From an uncultured Acidobacteriota bacterium (GTDB lineage Bacteria > Acidobacteriota > JAAYUB01): a stretch of 64,000 nt of DNA. How positions within the stretch are numbered: the first letter of the stretch is position 1; each line of letters begins with the position of its first letter. This document shows positions 10,465-64,000 of the stretch, one piece after another. The translations under genes and the position numbers were made by a program. The stretch spans positions 361,308 through 425,307 of the forward strand of contig CAYPNP010000002.1 of the NCBI GenBank assembly GCA_964412195.1. The letters are read 5' to 3'. The notes beneath the pieces were generated by a model that was not told the DNA's origin, ran no database searches, and saw only the letters and a list, made by a program, of their open reading frames with translations.

Positions 10465-10708
10465 TTTCACGTTGATTCCTCCAATCATGTACGCCCGAAA
10501 GCGGGTGTGGGATCGCCCCCCATTTATCCCTCTCCGCTGGCGGAATGTCAATCCCGGCGACGCTTTCCCCCCGCGGCCGTCCCGGTGGAGGATCCTGTCC
10601 GGACATGACATTTACCCCTCCCGGTCACAAAATACTTCTTTCTCCTTCGCAAATCTGATATAAAGTGTTGTTTGATTGTTTTATGCATTTTGTAATGGAG
10701 GCAAGCGT

Positions 10709-11287
10709 ATGACGACTTACTTGGAGGTTCGCTGGCACGGGCGCGGCGGCCAGGGGACAGTCACCGGCGCCAAGACCCTCGCCGAGGCGATCCTGAACGT
10801 CGGCAAACATATCCAGGCGTTTCCCGAGTACGGACCCGAGCGGCGCGGTGCGCCGGTCCGGGTGTACAACCGGTTTTCGAGCAATCCGATCCGGGTGCAC
10901 ACCCCCGTGAAAACCCCGGACGTCATCATCGTGGTCGATCCAACCCTCATCGGCGCGGCGGACCTCACCGGCGGCGCCAAGGACAATTCGATCTTCCTGA
11001 TCAACTCCACCGAGGAGGCCCCGGCCCTGCGCAAGAAACTCGGACTTCTGCCCACCCAGAAGCTGTTCATCATCCCGGCGACCAAGATCAGCGTGGAGGA
11101 GATCGGGCGGGCCCTGCCGAACGTCCCGATGCTCGGCGGATTCACCAAGGCCGTGCCCATGATCGGCATCGACGAGCTGATGAAGGAGATCCGCGAGAGC
11201 TTCGAGGGCAAGTTCCCGGAAAAAATCATCGAGGGTAACCTCGCGGCCACCCGCCGTGGGTACGAGGAGGCAAAGAGCGATGTTTAA
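10709..11287 (+). CDS. porG: pyruvate:ferredoxin oxidoreductase gamma subunit
   Basis: MTTYLEVRWHGRGGQGTVTGAKTLAEA is the PorC/gamma signature. First gene of a 4-gene por cluster; GGAGG RBS. Confidence 0.85.
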   Translation: MTTYLEVRWHGRGGQGTVTGAKTLAEAILNVGKHIQAFPEYGPERRGAPVRVYNRFSSNPIRVHTPVKTPDVIIVVDPTLIGAADLTGGAKDNSIFLINSTEEAPALRKKLGLLPTQKLFIIPATKISVEEIGRALPNVPMLGGFTKAVPMIGIDELMKEIRESFEGKFPEKIIEGNLAATRRGYEEAKSDV

Positions 11288-20966: not shown

Positions 20967-21905
20967 ATGGCCTACCGGTATCTCTTTGGACCCGTGCCCT
21001 CCCGCCGCCTGGGGATTTCCCTGGGCGTCGACCTCGTACCGCCCAAGATCTGCTCGATGGACTGCGTGTACTGCGAGTGCGGCCGCACAACGGAGCTGAC
21101 CCTGGAGCGGGGGGAATACGTGCCCACGACCGAGGTGGCCCGGGAGCTGGACCATTTCCTGGCCGGCCACCCGGCGCCGGACTTCGTCACCTTCTCCGGC
21201 GCCGGCGAGCCCACCCTGCACAGCGGCATCGGGAGGATCCTCTCGCATCTGAAGGCCGCCCACCGGGCGCCCGTGGCCCTGATCACCAACGCCACGCTGC
21301 TCGACCGGCCGGAGTTGCGCCGGGAGCTGCGGGACCTCGACGTGATCCTGCCGTCCCTGGACTCGGCCACAGCTGCCGGGCTCCGGCAGATCAACCGCCC
21401 CCATCCGGACATCCGGCCGGAGCGGATCGTGGACGGCCTGGCCGCCTTCCGGGAGGAGTTCCCGGGCGAAATCTGGCTGGAGATCTTCCTGCTGCACCCG
21501 TTCAACACCACGGACGCCGAGCTGGGGCAGCTGCAGGCCGCCGTCGACCGCATCCGGCCCGACCGGGTGCAGCTCAACTCCCTCGACCGCCCCGGGACGG
21601 AAGCCTGGGTGGAAAAGGTGTCGCAGGCCGATCTGGAATCCATCGCCGCCCGGCTCGCTCACCCACGGGTGGAAATCATTTCAAAGTACCGCCGGCGCCT
21701 GGACATCCGGGCCTACCGGCAGGACATCGAAGCGGCCATCGTCGAGACCATCTCCCGGCGGCCCTGCACCGTCCACGACCTCTGCGACGTCCTGGGCCTC
21801 CGGCCCCTGGAGGTCCGCAAGTACCTGGACGTCCTGGAGTCCGACCGGCGCCTGAAGGCGGAAATCCAGGACCGCGGCATCTTCTACCGGCTCCTCGTAC
21901 CCTAA
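20967..21905 (+). CDS. radical SAM protein with a C-terminal winged-helix-like domain
   Basis: CSMDCVYCEC is a CxxxCxxC radical-SAM cluster motif. Confidence 0.75.
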   Translation: MAYRYLFGPVPSRRLGISLGVDLVPPKICSMDCVYCECGRTTELTLERGEYVPTTEVARELDHFLAGHPAPDFVTFSGAGEPTLHSGIGRILSHLKAAHRAPVALITNATLLDRPELRRELRDLDVILPSLDSATAAGLRQINRPHPDIRPERIVDGLAAFREEFPGEIWLEIFLLHPFNTTDAELGQLQAAVDRIRPDRVQLNSLDRPGTEAWVEKVSQADLESIAARLAHPRVEIISKYRRRLDIRAYRQDIEAAIVETISRRPCTVHDLCDVLGLRPLEVRKYLDVLESDRRLKAEIQDRGIFYRLLVP

Positions 21906-21970: not shown

Positions 21971-22484
21971 TTTGGGGAGGTTGGTGTTTTTCGGAAATCG
22001 CTATTGCAATGCTGATGCCAACCGAGGGATTTCCCAATTATCATTTTTATTTTCAGTTAATTGCGCGCGGATTAGCCGGTTGATCTGCTCTGAAGGGATT
22101 CCCAAAACGCAACGAAGTGTTTCAGCCCGCCGGAATCCCGCCCGCCGGAATCCATCATCCCAAGCGAGATTAATTTGCAACTGATTGATATATTATGCTT
22201 TTAATAATATGATCAGCAGCGCAACAATTTGATGCAGGAGCGAATTGGAATATTTTCAATTCTGTTATGATTTTGATTCATGAAAAATCTCACCCTGCCG
22301 GAGGCCGTTGACGTCTGGCAGTTTCCCCCTTGGCCCTCCTGCAACGTTATGTGGCACCCATCAACCCTCCTGGAAGCGGTCCCGGCCGTTGCGTCCCGGC
22401 CATCCCTGTGGTATAAAGGCCATTACTTCGCCCCCCGTCCGCCCGGATTTTGTCCGAACCGGCCGGCCGCCCAGGAGTTATGTG

Positions 22485-25701: not shown

Positions 25702-25774
25702 CCCCAATCGCCGGGTTGTTGGTTGTTTGGCTTTCGGGGGGATTCATTGACAACACGCCGTCGTCCAGGTTGAG

Positions 25775-27916
25775 ATGTTTACCGCTCCCGAGTCGAAAGA
25801 ATCGAAAAATTGCTCTTCTGAGCCAACAAGGATTTCCCGTGTTGAGTTGATATTTTTTCTGGTCCTTTTCCTCTTCACTGCCTGTATTCTGATCATGCAC
25901 TTCGATTTCCCCCCGCTCCCCCACAACGATTTCGTCCAATTCTCCAGTCCAGCCAAAGCCTGGCTGGAATTTCAGATGCCGAAGTATTACAAAATCATGC
26001 CAGCCTTCCCGCTGGCGATCGCCGGCGTATCCCTGCTGGTCCCCCATGATCCGACTTTGTTGCATTCTTGCGAAATCGTAGTCCTGGGATCGGCTCTGGT
26101 CTTCTTGATTTTCTTCTGGCTCATTGTCCGACGCATCCTGCCCCACCTATGGCCCGTGCTGATGCTGTTCATCGTGATCAACCCCTACTTCATGGAATTC
26201 TCGCTTCAGACCCTCATGGAGATGTTCATTCTGGCGTCATTCACGGTCACTTTATGGGCATGTTCCAGACGAACGGAGTGGTCCGCGCTGCCGGCTGCCT
26301 GGACTTCGTTGACCCGATACGATTCCGTGTTTGTCGTGCCGCTTGTCGGCATCTTCCAGTATTTGAAGGGCGGCAAGAAAATCCGTACTCTGATCATCAC
26401 GATCCTGGCCGGCACCCCTTTCCTGATCTGGCTGGTACTCAGCGTGATCCACTCCCCCATGGTGAATCCCTACGTGGAAGAGATCCTCGATCCCACCCGG
26501 GAATTCGCCTTCATTCCCCTCGTCCGGATGCTGGTGCGGATGCTGATCGGCAGATCCCCTGTAGCTTGGCCTGCTCTGACAGGAGGAGAGATCGTTCTGG
26601 GCTTGGGGGTATTTGTCCTCGCATTGATTGGCGCTGTCCGGCTATGGAAAAGCAATCGAATCACGACCGGAGTCATGATCGGTTTCATTGCGAGCTATTT
26701 CCTCGTCCACGCCATCTTCAGGGCGGCCAACTACAGGTACAACTATCCGATCATCCCCTATTTGGGCTTGCTCGTCTTCATCAGCTTGGAACCTCGGAAT
26801 TCCGCCATCCGGTTTGCCTGGTCCTGGCGGAGGGCGGCACTCTTTCTGCTCCCCGGCGCCCTCCTGATTTGGGGCACGTGGGGATCGATCTTGTCCGGAT
26901 GGGTCCTGGCAATGTGGCTGTTCGCCATCGCCTGGTTCACCGTGCTTTTCGGGTGGAAAGAAGCAGGATCCCGGAAAAGGCGAGTCATCGCGTTTTTCAT
27001 CGGTTTGGCTGGATTGCTATGTCTCTGGCCTCCTCTTAAAATCTGGGATCTATCGTACTTTGAACAGCGGGGCCGTTTTTCCGAACTCATCGCCGCTTAC
27101 CGGTGGGTGAAGCAGAACTGCTCTCCGGACGATCGAGTCCTCATGGTCACTCCGTGGTATCTGGAAGCCAGGTATCCCCGCGGAGAATTGAAGAATTTCG
27201 TAGCCACCGATAATTTGCAGAGTAAGGATGCGCTGGGTTTCATCGACGAGTGCCGGATTCAGGATTTGGACTATGTTATCTGGCTGAGCTATGCCAAGGA
27301 TTTCGGCCGGGTGGACTATTTTCACAAGGAGACGCGCGAGTACCTTTTAAACGAGGCTCAACTGGGCGATCCCCGATCGAAACCCAATTTCCAGCTGATT
27401 CGGGTGCTGCCTGGTTTAACCGGCCAACAAGCGTTGGTCTATAAATTCCGGCCGGAATCGTCCACGCGCATGCAGCAGGATTTCCTGGATTTCAACCGGG
27501 AAGACAACTTCCGCTTGCTTCTCTCTGAAGGATGGTGTCCATCATTGGACGGCCATCCCGGTGGCAGGTTCTTGTGGGCGGTGGGGAAAGCCTCCAATTT
27601 CAATCTATTCCTGAAGAATGTAAAATCGGGGGGATCATTAAATTTCGTGGCTTTTCCCTTGGTAGGAGATAAACTGCCCTCCCAGACGATCGATGTATTC
27701 GTGAACGATCACTGGACGGGCAAGGTGGTGCTGATCCCGAAGGAAGAGAGGTACTCTGTGGATTTGAAGGGAGATTTCCTCCTGACGGGCAGGAATCGTT
27801 TCCGCTTTGAATATGCTTTCTGCGCCAGGCCCATAGACCTGGGTACAGGTCCAGACGTCCGCGAGCTTTCCGTACTCTTCAAGAAGATATATTTTCTTTC
27901 CAACGGGAACCGGTGA
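25775..27916 (+). CDS. large polytopic membrane protein with a periplasmic C-terminal domain; putative GT-C-fold (ArnT/PMT-like) glycosyltransferase; start uncertain
   Basis: At least 10 predicted TM helices in the N-terminal 430 aa, then a soluble domain. The gene is markedly lower in GC (about 50%) than its neighbours and is immediately followed by a Dpm1-like GT2. Confidence 0.55.
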   Translation: MFTAPESKESKNCSSEPTRISRVELIFFLVLFLFTACILIMHFDFPPLPHNDFVQFSSPAKAWLEFQMPKYYKIMPAFPLAIAGVSLLVPHDPTLLHSCEIVVLGSALVFLIFFWLIVRRILPHLWPVLMLFIVINPYFMEFSLQTLMEMFILASFTVTLWACSRRTEWSALPAAWTSLTRYDSVFVVPLVGIFQYLKGGKKIRTLIITILAGTPFLIWLVLSVIHSPMVNPYVEEILDPTREFAFIPLVRMLVRMLIGRSPVAWPALTGGEIVLGLGVFVLALIGAVRLWKSNRITTGVMIGFIASYFLVHAIFRAANYRYNYPIIPYLGLLVFISLEPRNSAIRFAWSWRRAALFLLPGALLIWGTWGSILSGWVLAMWLFAIAWFTVLFGWKEAGSRKRRVIAFFIGLAGLLCLWPPLKIWDLSYFEQRGRFSELIAAYRWVKQNCSPDDRVLMVTPWYLEARYPRGELKNFVATDNLQSKDALGFIDECRIQDLDYVIWLSYAKDFGRVDYFHKETREYLLNEAQLGDPRSKPNFQLIRVLPGLTGQQALVYKFRPESSTRMQQDFLDFNREDNFRLLLSEGWCPSLDGHPGGRFLWAVGKASNFNLFLKNVKSGGSLNFVAFPLVGDKLPSQTIDVFVNDHWTGKVVLIPKEERYSVDLKGDFLLTGRNRFRFEYAFCARPIDLGTGPDVRELSVLFKKIYFLSNGNR

Positions 27917-57723: not shown

Positions 57724-58410
57724 TCAGTTATATCGCCGGGGATCGTCGCGCTTGGGCTTCCGGTCGGAGGTGTACACCTTGAATTTCCTCCGGTACCACC
57801 AGCCGCGCAACCGCAGCCAGTAGTACTTGACGTCCGGCAGGAGGGTCCGGCGCTTCAGGTACACGTAGCCGAAGGCGAGGCCACCCAAGTGGGCGGCGTG
57901 GGCGATGCCGTCCCGGGCCCCGGAGACGGAGAAGACCAGCTCCGCCACCACGGTGAGGACGACCAGGTACTTGGCCTTGATGGGCAGCACGAAGAAGAGG
58001 AGCAGCTCCCGCTCGGGAAAGAAGAGGGCAAACGCCAGCAGCAGGCCGTACATGGCGCCCGATGCCCCCACCACCGGGACGTCGGACCAGGGATGGATCG
58101 CGTAGCTGCAGAGGCCGGCGCCGATGCCGGTGAAGAAATAATACGAGACGAACCGCCGCCGGCCCAGCGCGCGCTCCACGTCGGGGCCGAACATCCACAG
58201 CACGAACATGTTGAACAGGATGTGCATGGGGGAGGGACCGTGGAGAAACATGTAGGTGACCAGCCGCCAGAGCTGGTAGCCGCCGGTGACCGCCGCCGGA
58301 ATCAGGGAAAACCACTGATCCAGCAAGTAGTATTTCAGAGTCCGGTCTACGGTGGAGAGCAGGTAGACGCCGAAATTCAGCCCCAGGAAGAGCTTCACCA
58401 TGGGGGTCAT
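57724..58410 (-). CDS. rhomboid-family intramembrane serine protease (second copy); start uncertain (58410, 58452 or the 58608 track start)
   Basis: GASGAMYG catalytic serine and the AHLGGLAFG histidine motif. Confidence 0.65.
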
Positions 58411-58647
58411 CGCCGGTCCGATCTGGATGCGGGTTTCCTGTCCATAGCCCATGCGCGCCACTATACCCAAACCGCGCCCCCGAAACAAGGGGGGGCCCCG
58501 CCCCTGGCTGGGGTGCGTGGCGCGGAGGTCCCTCGCCGGCCTGCCGCAATTCCTTCTGTCCCCTCGGATTTTGTGTTGAAATTGGATGGAGGCTCCGTTA
58601 CAATCCACCCGTCATCAACAACAAGCCGGTTTCATGCAGGAGGAGAC

Positions 58648-59289: not shown

Positions 59290-60639
59290 GTGCCCCCCCC
59301 GAAACGGATTCCCCCGGCTTACAGCACCCTGGTGGACGCGGTGCGCGCCGCCGGCGTCGTCGGCATGGGCGGAGCGGGCTTCCCGACCCACCTGAAACTC
59401 CGGCCCCGGCTCGAGACCGTGATCATCAACGGGGCGGAGTGCGAGCCGCTGCTGGCCTGCGACCGGCACCTCCTCCAGCGCCACGCCCCGCTGGTCCTGG
59501 ACGGCGCCGCGCGGGTCGCCGCCGCCACGGGCGCCGGGGAAGTCGTCCTGGCGGTGAAGAAAAAGAACCGCGAATTGGCGGAAACCTTCGCCTCCCTCAC
59601 CTCCTCGATTCCGCTCCGGACCGTCCTGATGGACGACGTCTACCCTTCCGGCGACGAGTTCTTCGTGGTGCGGGACGCCTGCGGGAAAGCCCTGCCTCCC
59701 GGCGCCATCCCGGTGGACCATGGCATCCTCGTCGGCAACGCCGCGACCTTCAAGGCGGTCAGCGACGCCTGCGCCGGCGTCCCGTTAACCCGCCGCTTCG
59801 TCAGCGTCTGCGGCGCCGTCCACCGGCCCGTCACGCTGGAGGTCCCCGTCGGCGCCGCTTTTCACGAGCTGATCGCCGCCGCCGGCGGCCTGTCCGTCCC
59901 GGAGGCCGCGCTGTTGGAAGGCGGCGTGCTCATGGGCGAGCTCGCCGTGCCGGACGGCGTGGTGAAGAAGACCACCGCGGCCGTGGTCGCCCTGCCGCCG
60001 GACCACCCGGCGGTGCTGGAACGGACCCGGCCCCTCAGCTACTCCGTCAAGCTCGCCGAACACAGCTGCTGCCAGTGCGTGAAGTGCACCGAGCTGTGCT
60101 CGCGCAACCTGCTCGGCCACGAGATCGAGCCCCACAAGGCCATGCGCCTGGTGGGCTCGGCCCGCGACTACCGCGAGCTGTCCATGCCGTCGCTGTGGCA
60201 GTGCTCCGGCTGCGGGCTCTGCTCGCTGGTCGCCTGCCCGTTCGACCTGGGCGTCCGGCGGTTGATCCTGGAAGCGAGGAAGGGGCTGCCCCGATCCGCG
60301 CCGCCATCGGAGGTCCCCCGGGAGAGGCCGGACGCGGGCCTGTTTCTGGTGCCCACCCGACGGCTGATCCGGCGGCTCCGGCTGGACACCTACGACCGGC
60401 CCCAGCCGTTCGGCGGGCCGCTCCCCGCGCCTGCCCTTCTCCGGATCCCCTGCAAGCAGCACGTCGGCGCTCCCGCCGTGCCGGTGGTGGCCGAGGGACA
60501 GGCGGTGCGGGCCGGCGACCTGCTGGCCGCGGCGCCCGACGGGGCCGTCGGCGCCCACGTCCATGCCCCCGCCGCCGGACGCGTGGCCTCGGTCGGCGCC
60601 GAGATCGTGATCGAGACCGGTGAATCGGTGAGTCGGTGA
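59290..60639 (+). CDS. RnfC/PduS-like flavo-iron-sulfur protein (BMC-associated electron-transfer subunit); GTG start, uncertain
   Basis: GMGGAGFPTHLKL (RnfC/complex I 51 kDa-type nucleotide-binding/SLBB region), two ferredoxin motifs (CCQCVKCTELCSRN and CSGCGLCSLVACP), and a C-terminal RnfC_N-like barrel domain (RIPCKQHVGAPAVPVVAEGQAVRAGDLLA). Confidence 0.75.
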   Translation: MPPPKRIPPAYSTLVDAVRAAGVVGMGGAGFPTHLKLRPRLETVIINGAECEPLLACDRHLLQRHAPLVLDGAARVAAATGAGEVVLAVKKKNRELAETFASLTSSIPLRTVLMDDVYPSGDEFFVVRDACGKALPPGAIPVDHGILVGNAATFKAVSDACAGVPLTRRFVSVCGAVHRPVTLEVPVGAAFHELIAAAGGLSVPEAALLEGGVLMGELAVPDGVVKKTTAAVVALPPDHPAVLERTRPLSYSVKLAEHSCCQCVKCTELCSRNLLGHEIEPHKAMRLVGSARDYRELSMPSLWQCSGCGLCSLVACPFDLGVRRLILEARKGLPRSAPPSEVPRERPDAGLFLVPTRRLIRRLRLDTYDRPQPFGGPLPAPALLRIPCKQHVGAPAVPVVAEGQAVRAGDLLAAAPDGAVGAHVHAPAAGRVASVGAEIVIETGESVSR

Positions 60640-60651
60640 ATCGGCAGCAAC

Positions 60652-60779
<128 letters not shown>

Positions 60780-60818
60780 CTCTGTCCGTGATAGCATGGT
60801 TTCACAAGGAGCATCGTC

Positions 60819-61370
60819 ATGATTTCCCCCGCCATCGGCGCCCTCGAGTTCAACAGCATCGCCCGCGGCATCGAGGCTGCCGACGCCATGGTCAAGGCTG
60901 CCCAGGTGGAGCTGTTCGCCTCCAAAACCATCTGCCCCGGGAAGTACCTCTCGCTGTTGCACGGAGAGGTCTCCAGCGTGGCCGCCGCCATCGAGGCCGG
61001 CAAGGCGGTCGCCCGGGTGGCCCTCGTGGACGAGTTCGTCATCCCCAACGTCCACCCCCAGGTCTTCCCCGCCCTCACCGGCACCGCGACGCTCCATGAG
61101 ATGCTGGCTATCGGGGTGCTGGAAAGCTATTCCGCGCTGACCGGCATCCTGGCGGGCGACGCCGCCGCCAAGGCCGCCGCGGTGGACTTGATCGAGATCC
61201 GCCTGGCCAACGGGATCGGCGGCAAGGCGGTCCTGACCCTCACCGGCAACGTCGCCGACGTGGAGGCGGCCATCCGCGCCGGCGAGGCGGCCATCGCCCA
61301 CACCGGCCTGTTCGTCGCCGCCGTGGTCATCCCCGGCCCCCACGCCGACATCAAGAAGTTCCTGATCTGA
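60819..61370 (+). CDS. tandem-domain BMC-T shell protein, PduT-like (predicted 4Fe-4S-binding pore cysteine)
   Basis: Two BMC domains in 183 aa. N-terminus [43 protein letters not shown] closely parallels PduT, including the Cys in KTICPGK that ligates the Fe-S cluster in PduT. Confidence 0.8.
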   Translation: MISPAIGALEFNSIARGIEAADAMVKAAQVELFASKTICPGKYLSLLHGEVSSVAAAIEAGKAVARVALVDEFVIPNVHPQVFPALTGTATLHEMLAIGVLESYSALTGILAGDAAAKAAAVDLIEIRLANGIGGKAVLTLTGNVADVEAAIRAGEAAIAHTGLFVAAVVIPGPHADIKKFLI

Positions 61371-61627
61371 CGTCCTCTTCCCGGATTTTCAGCCGGACCC
61401 AAGCCGGTTCCCCTGCCGGCTGATTGTCAATGCATCTTGGGAAAATACACACAATTCAAACACAATTACCAGAAAGGTATAAATTTTTTATCTCATTCTA
61501 TTTCAGTGGGTTATCATAATAATCCGTTGACATCCCGGAGGTTCCATGCTTAATTGAATGTATGCGTGGAAATTTATCTTTTGCCAGACGAATCCGAACA
61601 TCGGCACGCCATGCCAGGGAGGCTGGA

Positions 61628-64000
61628 ATGTTCCATAACCGAAGAAATTCCAACATGTTGCGCGGGCTCTTGCTCCTGTCGCTGCTGATTGTCGGCAGCG
61701 GATTCTGGTCGTCGTCGGCCCTCGGGGCGGACAGGCCTTCGCGAGTCCCCCCCGCCGTCGTCGATCCTGACACCGGCGAGCGGATCGTCGTCATCGATCC
61801 GAACTGGCAATCCCTCGAGCCTTTCGCGGGCCGCTTCGCCGCCAAGAACTCGAAAGTAGAAGGCAGCCATTACATCGCCCTCGCCGCCATCTTCATGGAC
61901 ACGGACAAGCTGGTCACTACCGACCGCAAGGGCCGGCGCTCCTTCCTCGAGCCGGACCTCTCGAGCTTCCCCTCGGAAACGATCGGCCGGCCCTTCCAGA
62001 CCGGTTCGATGGATTACTTCCTCATCCAGGCCCGCTCGCCGGAGGACCAGATCCGGGTCCGCGGCTGGCTCGAGGAGAACGGCATCGTCATCCTCGACTA
62101 CATCCCCGACCTGGCATACCTGGTCCGGACGGACAAGACCGGCCTCTACGCACTGCAGCAGTTGAAGGAAGTTTACTGGACCGGCTACTTCCAGCCGGCC
62201 TTCCGCCTGGCTCCCAAGCTAGATTACGTCATCGAGGCGGATTTCGCCCACCCGCTCATGCTGACCGCGCATTTTGACCTCGTTGATTACGCGGATCTCA
62301 ACGACATCCTGGATGTGCTGCAGCCGCTGAACCTCCAGGTCACCGACTTCGCCCGGACGGACGCCTACTGGCTCATCCGACTGGAAGGACCGGCCGTGGA
62401 GGCCCGCCGCTTGATCACGATCCCAGGTTGCCTCTGGGTGGAACGCTTCGTGGAACGCGAGCTACACAACAATGTCGCCCGCACCTCAGCCAACACCACC
62501 ACCGGCCGCGGCGCCACCGCCGGCCCCATCATGGACGTGGAGGACGTGTGGGCCCGTGGCATCCGCGGCGAGGGCCAGATCGCCTCGGCCGCCGACACCG
62601 GCCTGTCCACCGGTAATATCACCACCCCCAACAGCATGCATTATGATTTCGGTCAAGTTGGCTCGGCTACCAATCCGATGCGCGTCCTCAAGGGCTACGC
62701 CCTCGGGCGAGCGACTTGGGACGACGACCAGACCACCGGCGGCGGCCACGGGACGCACACATCGGGGTCCATTGTGGGTAATGGAATTCGCTCTGGTTCG
62801 ACACCCAGCACGAACACGTTCCCTTCCACCTGCTATGCTGGCACGGCACCGAAGGCTCAATTTATTATTCAATCACTAATGGATTCTGATGGAAACCTGG
62901 GAGGATTACCCGCTGATTTAACGCAACTCTTTCTCCCTCCTTATAACGATGGCGCGCGTGTGCATTCCAACTCATGGGGGGCTCCAGTCGGCGGAGCCTA
63001 CAATACAGATTCACAGAATGTCGACAAATTCTGTTGGAATTACCAAGATATGTTAATCACTTTTTCTGCGGGAAATAGTGGAACAGACTCATCCACTTCA
63101 GATGGATTGATTGATAGCGATTCTATGGGAGCTCCTGGGACTGCTAAGAATTGTGTAACTGTGGGCGCATCTGAGAATTATCGGACAGATTTTGAATATG
63201 GTTACTATACAAATCGGGTCCGTTGTCAATCTTCTCCAACTTGGGGTTGGTTCAATTCATCTAATTTCCCCAATAATCCTATCAATTCAGATTTGATGGC
63301 AAATAATGCAAATGGGATGGGTGCATTTTCTTCCCGCGGTCCCACTAGCGATGGCCGGTTCAAGCCAGATGTAACTGCGCCTGGAATAGCCATATTTTCG
63401 ACACGGACTGATTTGCATCAAGCATTCGAAGAATGGGGATATTGCAATCTCAGTACCACGCTACGGCAGTATTACATCGCCATGGGTGGAACATCTATGG
63501 CGAATCCTCTCACAGCTGGAGCTTGTGTTCTGATTCGCCAATACTATACCCAAGGTTGGCATGCAAATGGTAGTAATATCACTCATACATCTCCAGTGAT
63601 CGCTGATGGTTTTTCACCATCTTCTGCCCTTGTGAAGGCCACACTGATCAATGGAGCTTGGGACATGAGTCCGGGGCAGTATGGAACTGGCACTACCCGG
63701 GAAATCCCCCCCAGTTGGGACACCGGACACGACCTGCCCAACAATGCGGAAGGTTATGGTCGGGTAGACTTGGAACACTCCCTCTTTCCAGGCTCAGGGT
63801 ACGGAGATATGACAGGGCGGTTGCTCGAGGTCCACGATGTTACGCCCGGTCTGCAAACAGCCGAAAGCAAATCGTATGCGTTCACCGTCGGCTCGAACGC
63901 CAACCCCTTGATCGTCACGTTGGTGTGGACGGACCCGTATGGCGCGACGTACGTGGGCACCGAGCTGGTCAATGATCTGGATCTGTTGGTCACGGCACCG
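61628..64000 (+). CDS. secreted subtilisin-like serine protease (peptidase S8), 3' end outside the window; not in the ORF track because no stop is reached
   Basis: Manual translation shows an uninterrupted 791-codon frame. It has a signal peptide (MLRGLLLLSLLIVGSGFWSSSALG) and S8 catalytic-triad contexts: Asp (SAADTGL), His (GGGHGTHTSGS) and Ser (GGTSMANP). GGGAGG RBS 6 nt upstream. Confidence 0.75.
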   Translation, partial: MFHNRRNSNMLRGLLLLSLLIVGSGFWSSSALGADRPSRVPPAVVDPDTGERIVVIDPNWQSLEPFAGRFAAKNSKVEGSHYIALAAIFMDTDKLVTTDRKGRRSFLEPDLSSFPSETIGRPFQTGSMDYFLIQARSPEDQIRVRGWLEENGIVILDYIPDLAYLVRTDKTGLYALQQLKEVYWTGYFQPAFRLAPKLDYVIEADFAHPLMLTAHFDLVDYADLNDILDVLQPLNLQVTDFARTDAYWLIRLEGPAVEARRLITIPGCLWVERFVERELHNNVARTSANTTTGRGATAGPIMDVEDVWARGIRGEGQIASAADTGLSTGNITTPNSMHYDFGQVGSATNPMRVLKGYALGRATWDDDQTTGGGHGTHTSGSIVGNGIRSGSTPSTNTFPSTCYAGTAPKAQFIIQSLMDSDGNLGGLPADLTQLFLPPYNDGARVHSNSWGAPVGGAYNTDSQNVDKFCWNYQDMLITFSAGNSGTDSSTSDGLIDSDSMGAPGTAKNCVTVGASENYRTDFEYGYYTNRVRCQSSPTWGWFNSSNFPNNPINSDLMANNANGMGAFSSRGPTSDGRFKPDVTAPGIAIFSTRTDLHQAFEEWGYCNLSTTLRQYYIAMGGTSMANPLTAGACVLIRQYYTQGWHANGSNITHTSPVIADGFSPSSALVKATLINGAWDMSPGQYGTGTTREIPPSWDTGHDLPNNAEGYGRVDLEHSLFPGSGYGDMTGRLLEVHDVTPGLQTAESKSYAFTVGSNANPLIVTLVWTDPYGATYVGTELVNDLDLLVTAP

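Follow-up and report, generated by a model that had tools for sequence, protein, structure and literature searches.

The 64,000-nucleotide stretch of DNA analysed here (hereafter, the window) comes from an uncultured Acidobacteriota bacterium (contig CAYPNP010000002.1, positions 361,308 to 425,307) and has an overall GC content of 64.0%. At its 3′ end lies a gene for a serine protease of the S8 (subtilase) family, the catalytic region of which contains a tract of strongly deviating base composition; this tract, its boundaries and its origin are the subject of this report. The gene starts with an ATG at 61628 on the forward strand, preceded by the Shine-Dalgarno sequence GGGAGG (61617-61622), and is free of stop codons up to the window end at 64000 (790 codons). 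Residues 351-710 of the product match the Pfam domain PF00082 above the gathering score (E = 1.8e-33, 116.5 bits; cut-off 21.8), and the residues of the active site, read from the translation, stand in canonical motifs: catalytic Asp323 (62594-62596, AADTGL), catalytic His374 (62747-62749, GHGTHTSG), oxyanion Asn448 (62969-62971, HSNSWG) and catalytic Ser623 (63494-63496, GGTSMANP). Together, the Pfam score and the Asp-His-(Asn)-Ser order place the predicted protein in the Peptidase S8 family.

The first ~290 residues gave no match in the Pfam search. The nearest solved structures are those of SubHal (5fax; E = 1e-59) and KP-43 (1wmd; E = 1e-58), with which the protein shares the catalytic domain and the order of the D-H-N-S residues. 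The KP-43/SubHal-like fold includes a C-terminal β-barrel domain, and the downstream region of our protein aligns with the C-terminal part of the two enzymes (a sequence match, in a gene that is incomplete at the window end). Unlike them, it has an extra N-terminal domain of ~290 aa and probably more than 700 further C-terminal residues, and it belongs to an Acidobacteriota family of ~1490-2130 aa, the complete members of which are encoded in metagenome-assembled genomes (MAGs) of Thermoanaerobaculia and Holophagae. The highest overall identity of the full protein in the protein database is 63%, and that of the N-terminal domain (N-domain) among GTDB species representatives is 57%. The gene thus appears to encode a large secreted subtilase of the KP-43/SubHal type; it is conserved beside a bacterial microcompartment (BMC) locus in an Acidobacteria-like lineage of roughly 64-70% GC.

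Two sequences from other assemblies are used for comparison throughout, namely, L001 (P0005; ENA ERZ28614311), a syntenic orthologue, and L023, a 2.4-kb contig of ENA assembly ERZ1649853. Based on GC content at third codon positions (GC3) and on divergence from these relatives, the protease gene and its upstream spacer can be divided as follows:

61371..61627, forward strand: intergenic AT-rich spacer separating the gene for the BMC shell protein from that for the protease; GC 0.35-0.50
61628..62613, forward strand: 5′ host-like part of the protease gene, with the signal peptide, the ~290-aa N-domain and the start of the catalytic domain including the Asp motif; GC3 ~0.85
62614..62770, forward strand: GC-rich stretch that is nevertheless diverged from L001; contains a 3-codon insertion (ITTPNSMH) common only to L023 and ends at the invariant GGHGTHTSGSIVGNG block with His374
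62771..63631, forward strand: AT-rich, putatively recombinant tract of 287 codons, from just past the His motif through Asn448 and Ser623 to ~45 codons beyond Ser
63632..63879, forward strand: segment of intermediate composition (GC3 ~0.57-0.73); identity to L001 at 4-fold degenerate sites is 0.31-0.44, i.e., still synonymously diverged
63880..64000, forward strand: return to host-like composition (GC3 0.97); the gene extends past the window

In windows of 30 codons, GC3 is 0.73-0.97 up to ~62750, drops to 0.27-0.50 over 62800-63600, rises to 0.57-0.73 over 63650-63850 and reaches 0.97 at 63878. A three-segment maximum-likelihood model sets the change points at 62771 (2-log-likelihood interval 62756-62780) and 63632 (63620-63878), separating segments with GC3 of 0.845, 0.366 and 0.689, and improves the log-likelihood over a one-segment model by 83.0, compared to a maximum of 12.6 in 100 permutations. 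Consistently, codons ending in A or T make up 40-88% of each synonymous family tested in the tract and 6-18% in the 26 other genes of the window. An index similar to the codon adaptation index (CAI), scored against these 26 genes, equals 0.62 for the N-terminal part, 0.20 for the tract and 0.41 for the C-terminal part, with the other window genes ranging from 0.54 to 0.86. The first codon position is affected as well (GC1 of 0.48 vs 0.51-0.62 in the same columns of GC-rich homologues), and GC2 is not lowered.

The original prediction, made from the sequence alone, had described this gene as a GC mosaic and proposed sliding-window GC3 and codon adaptation plots as a check. Both analyses bear out the description and its coordinates: GC3 changes from 0.85 to 0.37 to 0.69, and the CAI-like index of the tract is strongly atypical for the window. 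As predicted, the composition switches without disrupting the frame; the catalytic residues, too, are all preserved. The extent of the AT-rich part, given as running from the His through the Ser motif, holds for Asn448 and Ser623, which lie inside the tract; His374, however, sits at its boundary, and Asp323 belongs to the host-like part. Likewise, of the two flanks thought to be host-like, this is true for the 5′ part, whereas the 3′ side is only intermediate (~0.6-0.7) until ~63880.

Junctions and divergence in related assemblies

A scan of metagenomes with the N-domain yielded only one additional close relative, L023, which ends at the equivalent of ~62980, ~200 bp into the tract. It carries the same BMC gene, AT-rich spacer and 5′ part of the protease gene as the window, at 91% nucleotide identity and with an identity of 0.79 at 4-fold degenerate sites; the part corresponding to 61628..62613 is 93% identical at the amino acid level. 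L023 spans the 5′ junction of the tract with the same sequence, identity being 89% in the alignment window starting at 62708 and 97% in that starting at 62828, and the shared AT-rich sequence has GC3 of 0.35 in the window and 0.40 in L023. Because the two sequences differ at ~9% of positions on both sides of the shared junction, a join made by an assembler is excluded, and the 5′ junction can, judging from these sequences, be taken as real in the organism. Furthermore, since both the junction and the tract are common to the window and L023, the tract predates the split between the two. Within the part covered by L023, identity at 4-fold degenerate sites is 0.95 in the AT-rich sequence vs 0.79 in the backbone; the AT-rich part is thus not evolving faster than the backbone between these sequences, and there is no ongoing hypermutation.

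In L001, the order of genes (RnfC-like, BMC, AT-rich spacer, protease) is the same as in the window. At ~3700 of L001, a run of five instead of six A residues splits the protease into two called genes; this 1-nt deletion, which may reflect an error in sequencing or assembly or else a genuine frameshift that could be phase-variable, was repaired before analysis. Divergence between the window and L001 changes along the locus:

BMC gene: 93% amino acid identity; 0.80 identity at 4-fold degenerate sites
RnfC-like gene: 87%; 0.83
protease N-domain: 85%; 0.71 (0.44 expected from composition)
AT-rich tract: 65%; 0.34 (0.27 expected from composition), saturated

Synonymous divergence (dS) of the backbone is ~0.2-0.3, against a saturated tract. 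Other homologues display the reverse pattern, their catalytic regions being 10-20 points more conserved than the N-domains. The maximum chi-square method places the breakpoint between the window and L001 at nucleotide 62614, just past the Asp motif (chi-square of 89.8 vs a permutation maximum of 18.8), with 15.6% nucleotide differences before this position and 34.4% after it. In a three-way DNA alignment, the window, L023 and L001 are near-identical through ...GACACCGGCCTGTCCACCGGnAAC (...ACCGGnAAC) and then diverge instantly, with a 9-nt indel. From the equivalent of 62614, GC3 of L001 falls to 0.2-0.5, that is, 157 nt upstream of the step in the window, so that over 62614..62770 it is 0.32-0.35 in L001 and 0.70-0.78 in the window. 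The 5′ boundaries accordingly differ, with the L001 allele beginning after the Asp motif and the window allele after the invariant GGHGTHTSGSIVGNG block. Being AT-rich but with another sequence and another 5′ boundary, L001 shows that the sister lineages hold two different AT-rich alleles.

Separate neighbour-joining trees (300 bootstraps) of the N-domain and the tract reveal phylogenetic incongruence between the two, both in branch lengths and in nearest neighbours. In the N-domain tree, the window and L001 are paired at a distance of 0.16 with 100% bootstrap support. In the tract tree, both sit on long branches at ~0.45, are paired in only 56% of the replicates and are each as close to L020, from a Thermoanaerobaculales MAG of lower GC, as to each other; the three group together with 84% support. 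In a set of 29 sequences, no others are as far on average from the GC-rich members as the window and L001 (0.47 and 0.50 vs 0.33-0.46), and the distances of these two to their nearest neighbours are also the largest (0.41 each vs 0.11-0.33).

In most genes of the family, GC3 is uniform along the gene. An exception comparable to the window is L004, located on a 5-Mb contig of an Acidobacteriota MAG, in which GC3 starts at ~0.85 in the N-domain, falls to 0.23-0.45 over residues 412-590 and, after a patchy part, ends at 0.95-1.0; low GC is restricted to the gene interior. At the 5′ end, L004 and its close relative L002 share 93-95% nucleotide identity and 0.91-0.96 identity at 4-fold degenerate sites, vs 0.12-0.35 (saturation) over the AT-rich patch of L004, with mosaic alternation elsewhere. 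L004 also has an 18-aa Cys-containing insertion that L002 lacks; many other family members hold a related insertion at this place, and such a homologous insertion would be hard to generate in place. A further AT-rich allele, 67-75% identical to the others, is present in L030 (P0121), a 1.2-kb fragment covering the catalytic region only. Altogether, there are four mutually divergent (~60-75% amino acid identity) AT-rich alleles, three of which are embedded in GC-rich genes of GC-rich genomes. The His-to-Ser segment appears to have been exchanged repeatedly in this family, the swaps at this position numbering three or more and being independent of each other.

Origin of the AT-rich tract

We consider it probable (about 0.78) that the ~860 bp at 62771-63631 did not evolve in place but were acquired through recombination from an allele of the same subtilase family that is AT-rich and deeply divergent, and that the same segment has been exchanged repeatedly. 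Under this scenario, the import would cover the region from just past the catalytic His to beyond the catalytic Ser, that is, the substrate-binding part of the fold. The 5′ crossover would have fallen in the invariant GGHGTHTSGSIVGNG block, leaving the frame and the catalytic residues intact, and the joining would have occurred by homologous or homology-facilitated (illegitimate) recombination anchored in the short conserved DNA that encodes the motif. The sister lineage represented by L001 would have received a different AT-rich allele, starting 157 nt further upstream, and L004 a third one, unlike its close relative L002. The replacement of the catalytic core by recombination, which the original prediction had proposed, is borne out by the composition step, the junction reproduced in L023, the breakpoint with L001 at 62614, the synonymous saturation of the tract and the discordance of trees and indels. 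Its second proposal, that the gene was acquired recently as a whole and is partly ameliorated, is not supported: similarity to L001 and L023 is no lower in the N-domain than in the neighbouring backbone genes, and synteny is kept.

Several observations weigh against import by recombination or limit what can be said of it. Protein searches with the full protein, the tract alone and the L001 tract against a database of 5.8 billion protein clusters found no donor, the highest identities being 59-71% for the window tract and 62-64% for that of L001. Furthermore, among the sampled family genes with a covered N-terminal part, none matches the tract in being AT-rich throughout; L015 comes closest, with GC3 of 0.47-0.56. 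The recipient and the imported DNA would be only ~60-70% identical, at which level classical RecA-mediated exchange would be inefficient; nor can a position be given for the 3′ crossover, as sequence is available only up to 64000 in the window and up to ~62980 in L023. Finally, the branches of the AT-rich alleles are unusually long, and their products contain slightly fewer G, A, R and P residues; some accelerated evolution could contribute to this. The missing donor lowers certainty about the source, not about recombination.

As for the source itself, a low-GC relative outside the sampled set or a pool of old alleles appears most plausible. As for the low-GC donor that had been predicted, the tract is AT-rich and probably recombinational, but a low-GC organism is suggested by its composition and not by a match. 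The separate search with the low-GC segment that had been proposed, with comparison of best-hit taxa, gave at best the 59-71% identity mentioned above and no donor taxon. The closest partial match, P0145 (71% over 41% of the tract), is GC-rich; P0121/L030 is AT-rich, indeed about as much as the tract where it is sampled (the catalytic region), but represents a separate allele. Searches of viral contigs and phages gave no match, and the matches in plasmids are at most 38% identical. Neither a second or partial copy of the tract nor silent cassettes or repeats were found in the 64-kb window or within 10 kb on either side of the L004, L020 and L002 loci.

Among the other explanations, the one that deserves most attention, although we regard it as rather unlikely, is that the tracts belong to an old, clade-wide pool of alternative alleles. 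The His-to-Ser segment would then be a hypervariable module, kept polymorphic by diversifying or frequency-dependent selection (e.g., to evade protease inhibitors or to alter the range of substrates) and shuffled among related GC-rich strains, its low GC reflecting the drift of long-lived, seldom recombining alleles to an AT-biased mutational equilibrium beyond the reach of GC-biased conversion or selection and not a foreign donor. The four mutually divergent AT-rich alleles, three of which lie within genes and genomes otherwise rich in GC, fit such a pool, as do their similar GC3 (~0.35-0.40), their confinement to the family with positions loosely near the clade of their hosts in the tract tree, and donor searches that retrieved no low-GC genome. 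The AT bias of bacterial mutation (PMC2936529) and the association of recombination with higher GC (PMC4450053) also count in its favour. However, one or two sequences per lineage is thin sampling for a claim of long-term polymorphism, diversifying selection would not usually be expected to act on a catalytic core, saturation of dS bars an estimate of dN/dS, and low-GC relatives outside the sampled set are a simpler source. We find it very improbable, clearly more so than the pool of alleles, that the tract arose in place, be it through hypermutation that is local and AT-biased or through selection for rare codons ending in A or T (e.g., to slow translation of the catalytic domain). The long branches and slightly AT-shifted amino acid composition of the AT-rich alleles, the residual pairing of the window with L001 in the tract tree and the fruitless donor searches would all agree with such an origin. 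Yet a backbone identity of ~0.8 at 4-fold degenerate sites next to a saturated tract would call for a localised rate increase of more than 10-fold, with edges that are abrupt to the nucleotide and placed differently in the window and L001 lineages. Comparison of the window with L023 shows no faster change in the tract than in the backbone. Moreover, codon selection would not alter 35% of the residues, the 18-aa insertion distinguishing L004 from L002 is homologous to that of other members, and the strand asymmetry expected of deaminase damage is not seen consistently.

Still smaller chances attach to the two remaining possibilities. Recent transfer of the entire, now partly ameliorated gene, a position at the border of a genomic island, or programmed variation through silent cassettes or a diversity-generating retroelement might be suspected from the atypical composition and from the position of the gene at the window end, with its downstream context outside the window. 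All are very improbable, given the host composition and backbone-level divergence of the N-domain, the synteny of BMC gene, spacer and protease in three assemblies, the results with viral, phage and plasmid sequences and the lack of further copies at the loci inspected; nor does an 860-bp tract whose differences involve all four bases resemble the variable region of a diversity-generating retroelement. Least credible is a chimeric metagenome assembly joining a GC-rich and an AT-rich organism at a conserved motif. The step does coincide with the most conserved motif of the family, but L023, from a different assembly, carries the identical junction, which rules this candidate out, and analogous junctions with other sequences occur in L001 and in L004, whose contig is 5 Mb long. 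Besides, sequences with GC3 of 0.85 and 0.37 would not share a k-mer of assembler length, and the reading frame and catalytic residues are intact.

Comparison with known mosaic systems

Mosaic genes produced by recombination are a known phenomenon; what is modestly unusual here is the repeated swapping of the specificity core of an enzyme for AT-rich alleles in GC-rich Acidobacteriota. Intragenic mosaics generated by interspecies or homeologous recombination include the penicillin-binding-protein genes of pneumococci and Neisseria, as well as flagellin and intimin genes with their variable central regions. Like these, the subtilase gene has divergent blocks within a conserved syntenic gene, sharp breakpoints and a preserved frame, and different blocks occur in sister lineages. 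Unlike in these systems, the block exchanged here belongs to a secreted protease, whose catalytic and substrate-binding core it forms; it has GC3 of 0.37 inside a gene of 0.85, is synonymously saturated (35% amino acid difference) and came without a donor in our searches, and the hosts are uncultured Acidobacteriota. A second parallel is provided by low-GC hypervariable loci for surface structures, such as the O-antigen (rfb) clusters, for which donors are not known to have been found: here too, multiple deeply divergent AT-rich alternatives occupy one position in higher-GC genomes, and the searches gave no low-GC source. The O-antigen cassettes, however, comprise whole genes for polysaccharide synthesis, whereas the subtilase case concerns a sub-gene segment of one enzyme, known from one or two sequences per lineage.

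In the structures of subtilisin BPN′, the oxyanion Asn and the strands and pockets that bind the substrate all fall in the segment that runs from His to Ser. By analogy, a swap of this segment would change the whole specificity core of the protease, with the secretion signal, N-domain, Asp motif and regulatory context being kept. The swaps provide a clean natural example of divergent sequences recombining at conserved motifs, and the AT-rich alleles bear on the question of why hypervariable segments are so often AT-rich. If the pool of old alleles were the correct explanation, they would constitute an enzyme-core counterpart of the low-GC O-antigen loci or flagellin variable regions. In practical terms, taxonomic binning or calls of horizontal gene transfer based on the composition or top matches of this gene depend on the segment used.

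The upstream locus and other observations

Directly upstream of the protease are genes for a PduS/RnfC-like flavoprotein (59290-60639) and a PduT-like tandem-BMC shell protein (60819-61370), and the BMC-spacer-protease synteny is kept in three Acidobacteria-like assemblies (window 59290-61370, L001 3-1489, L023 ~1-980). The spacer itself contains elements conserved in the window, L023 and L001, namely, TTGACA (61527-61532), TTAATT 17 nt downstream of it, and GGGAGG. A simple consensus scan of the spacer found neither a promoter nor a terminator, and the Rfam search returned nothing significant. A riboswitch or structured leader was ruled out, the only Rfam match being a sub-threshold one to a snoRNA, of no relevance here. 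The region upstream of the gene had been called atypical; it is indeed AT-rich (GC 0.35-0.50) but is an ordinary AT-rich intergenic promoter/leader, kept in three assemblies and lying outside the mosaic.

Between the flavoprotein and BMC shell genes, the region 60618-60779 is dense in short tandem repeats: CGGTGAAT (3.4 copies), ATTGCGG (4.6), TTCGTGTGG (2.7), GATTGCG (2.7) and TTCGATG (5.6). Similar repeats are apparent in the upstream part of L023, as judged only from its translation. Three kilobases upstream of the protease, on the reverse strand, lies a gene for a rhomboid-family protease (57724-58611) with a sub-threshold match to rhombosortase (49 bits vs a cut-off of 84). A GlyGly-CTERM sorting signal, considered because of this gene, was not seen at the C-termini of the relatives (that of the window protein lies outside the window); many of these C-termini end in PQQ-like β-propeller repeats. 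Additional AT-rich patches occur in the C-terminal non-catalytic domains of L004 (11100-13800), L001 (4650-5800), L020 (~10600-10900) and L002 (9500-10400), so that the whole extracellular part looks mosaic, not the catalytic core alone.

Elsewhere in the window, the lowest GC over 300 nt outside the protease gene (0.42) is found at 22001-22300, between open reading frames ending at 21905 and starting at 22284. The sole other gene with lowered GC3 (0.68, with patches of 0.43-0.9 and no sharp step) is located at 25751-27916 and encodes a 721-aa polytopic membrane protein with no match in the Pfam search; it may represent another horizontally exchanged surface-related gene.

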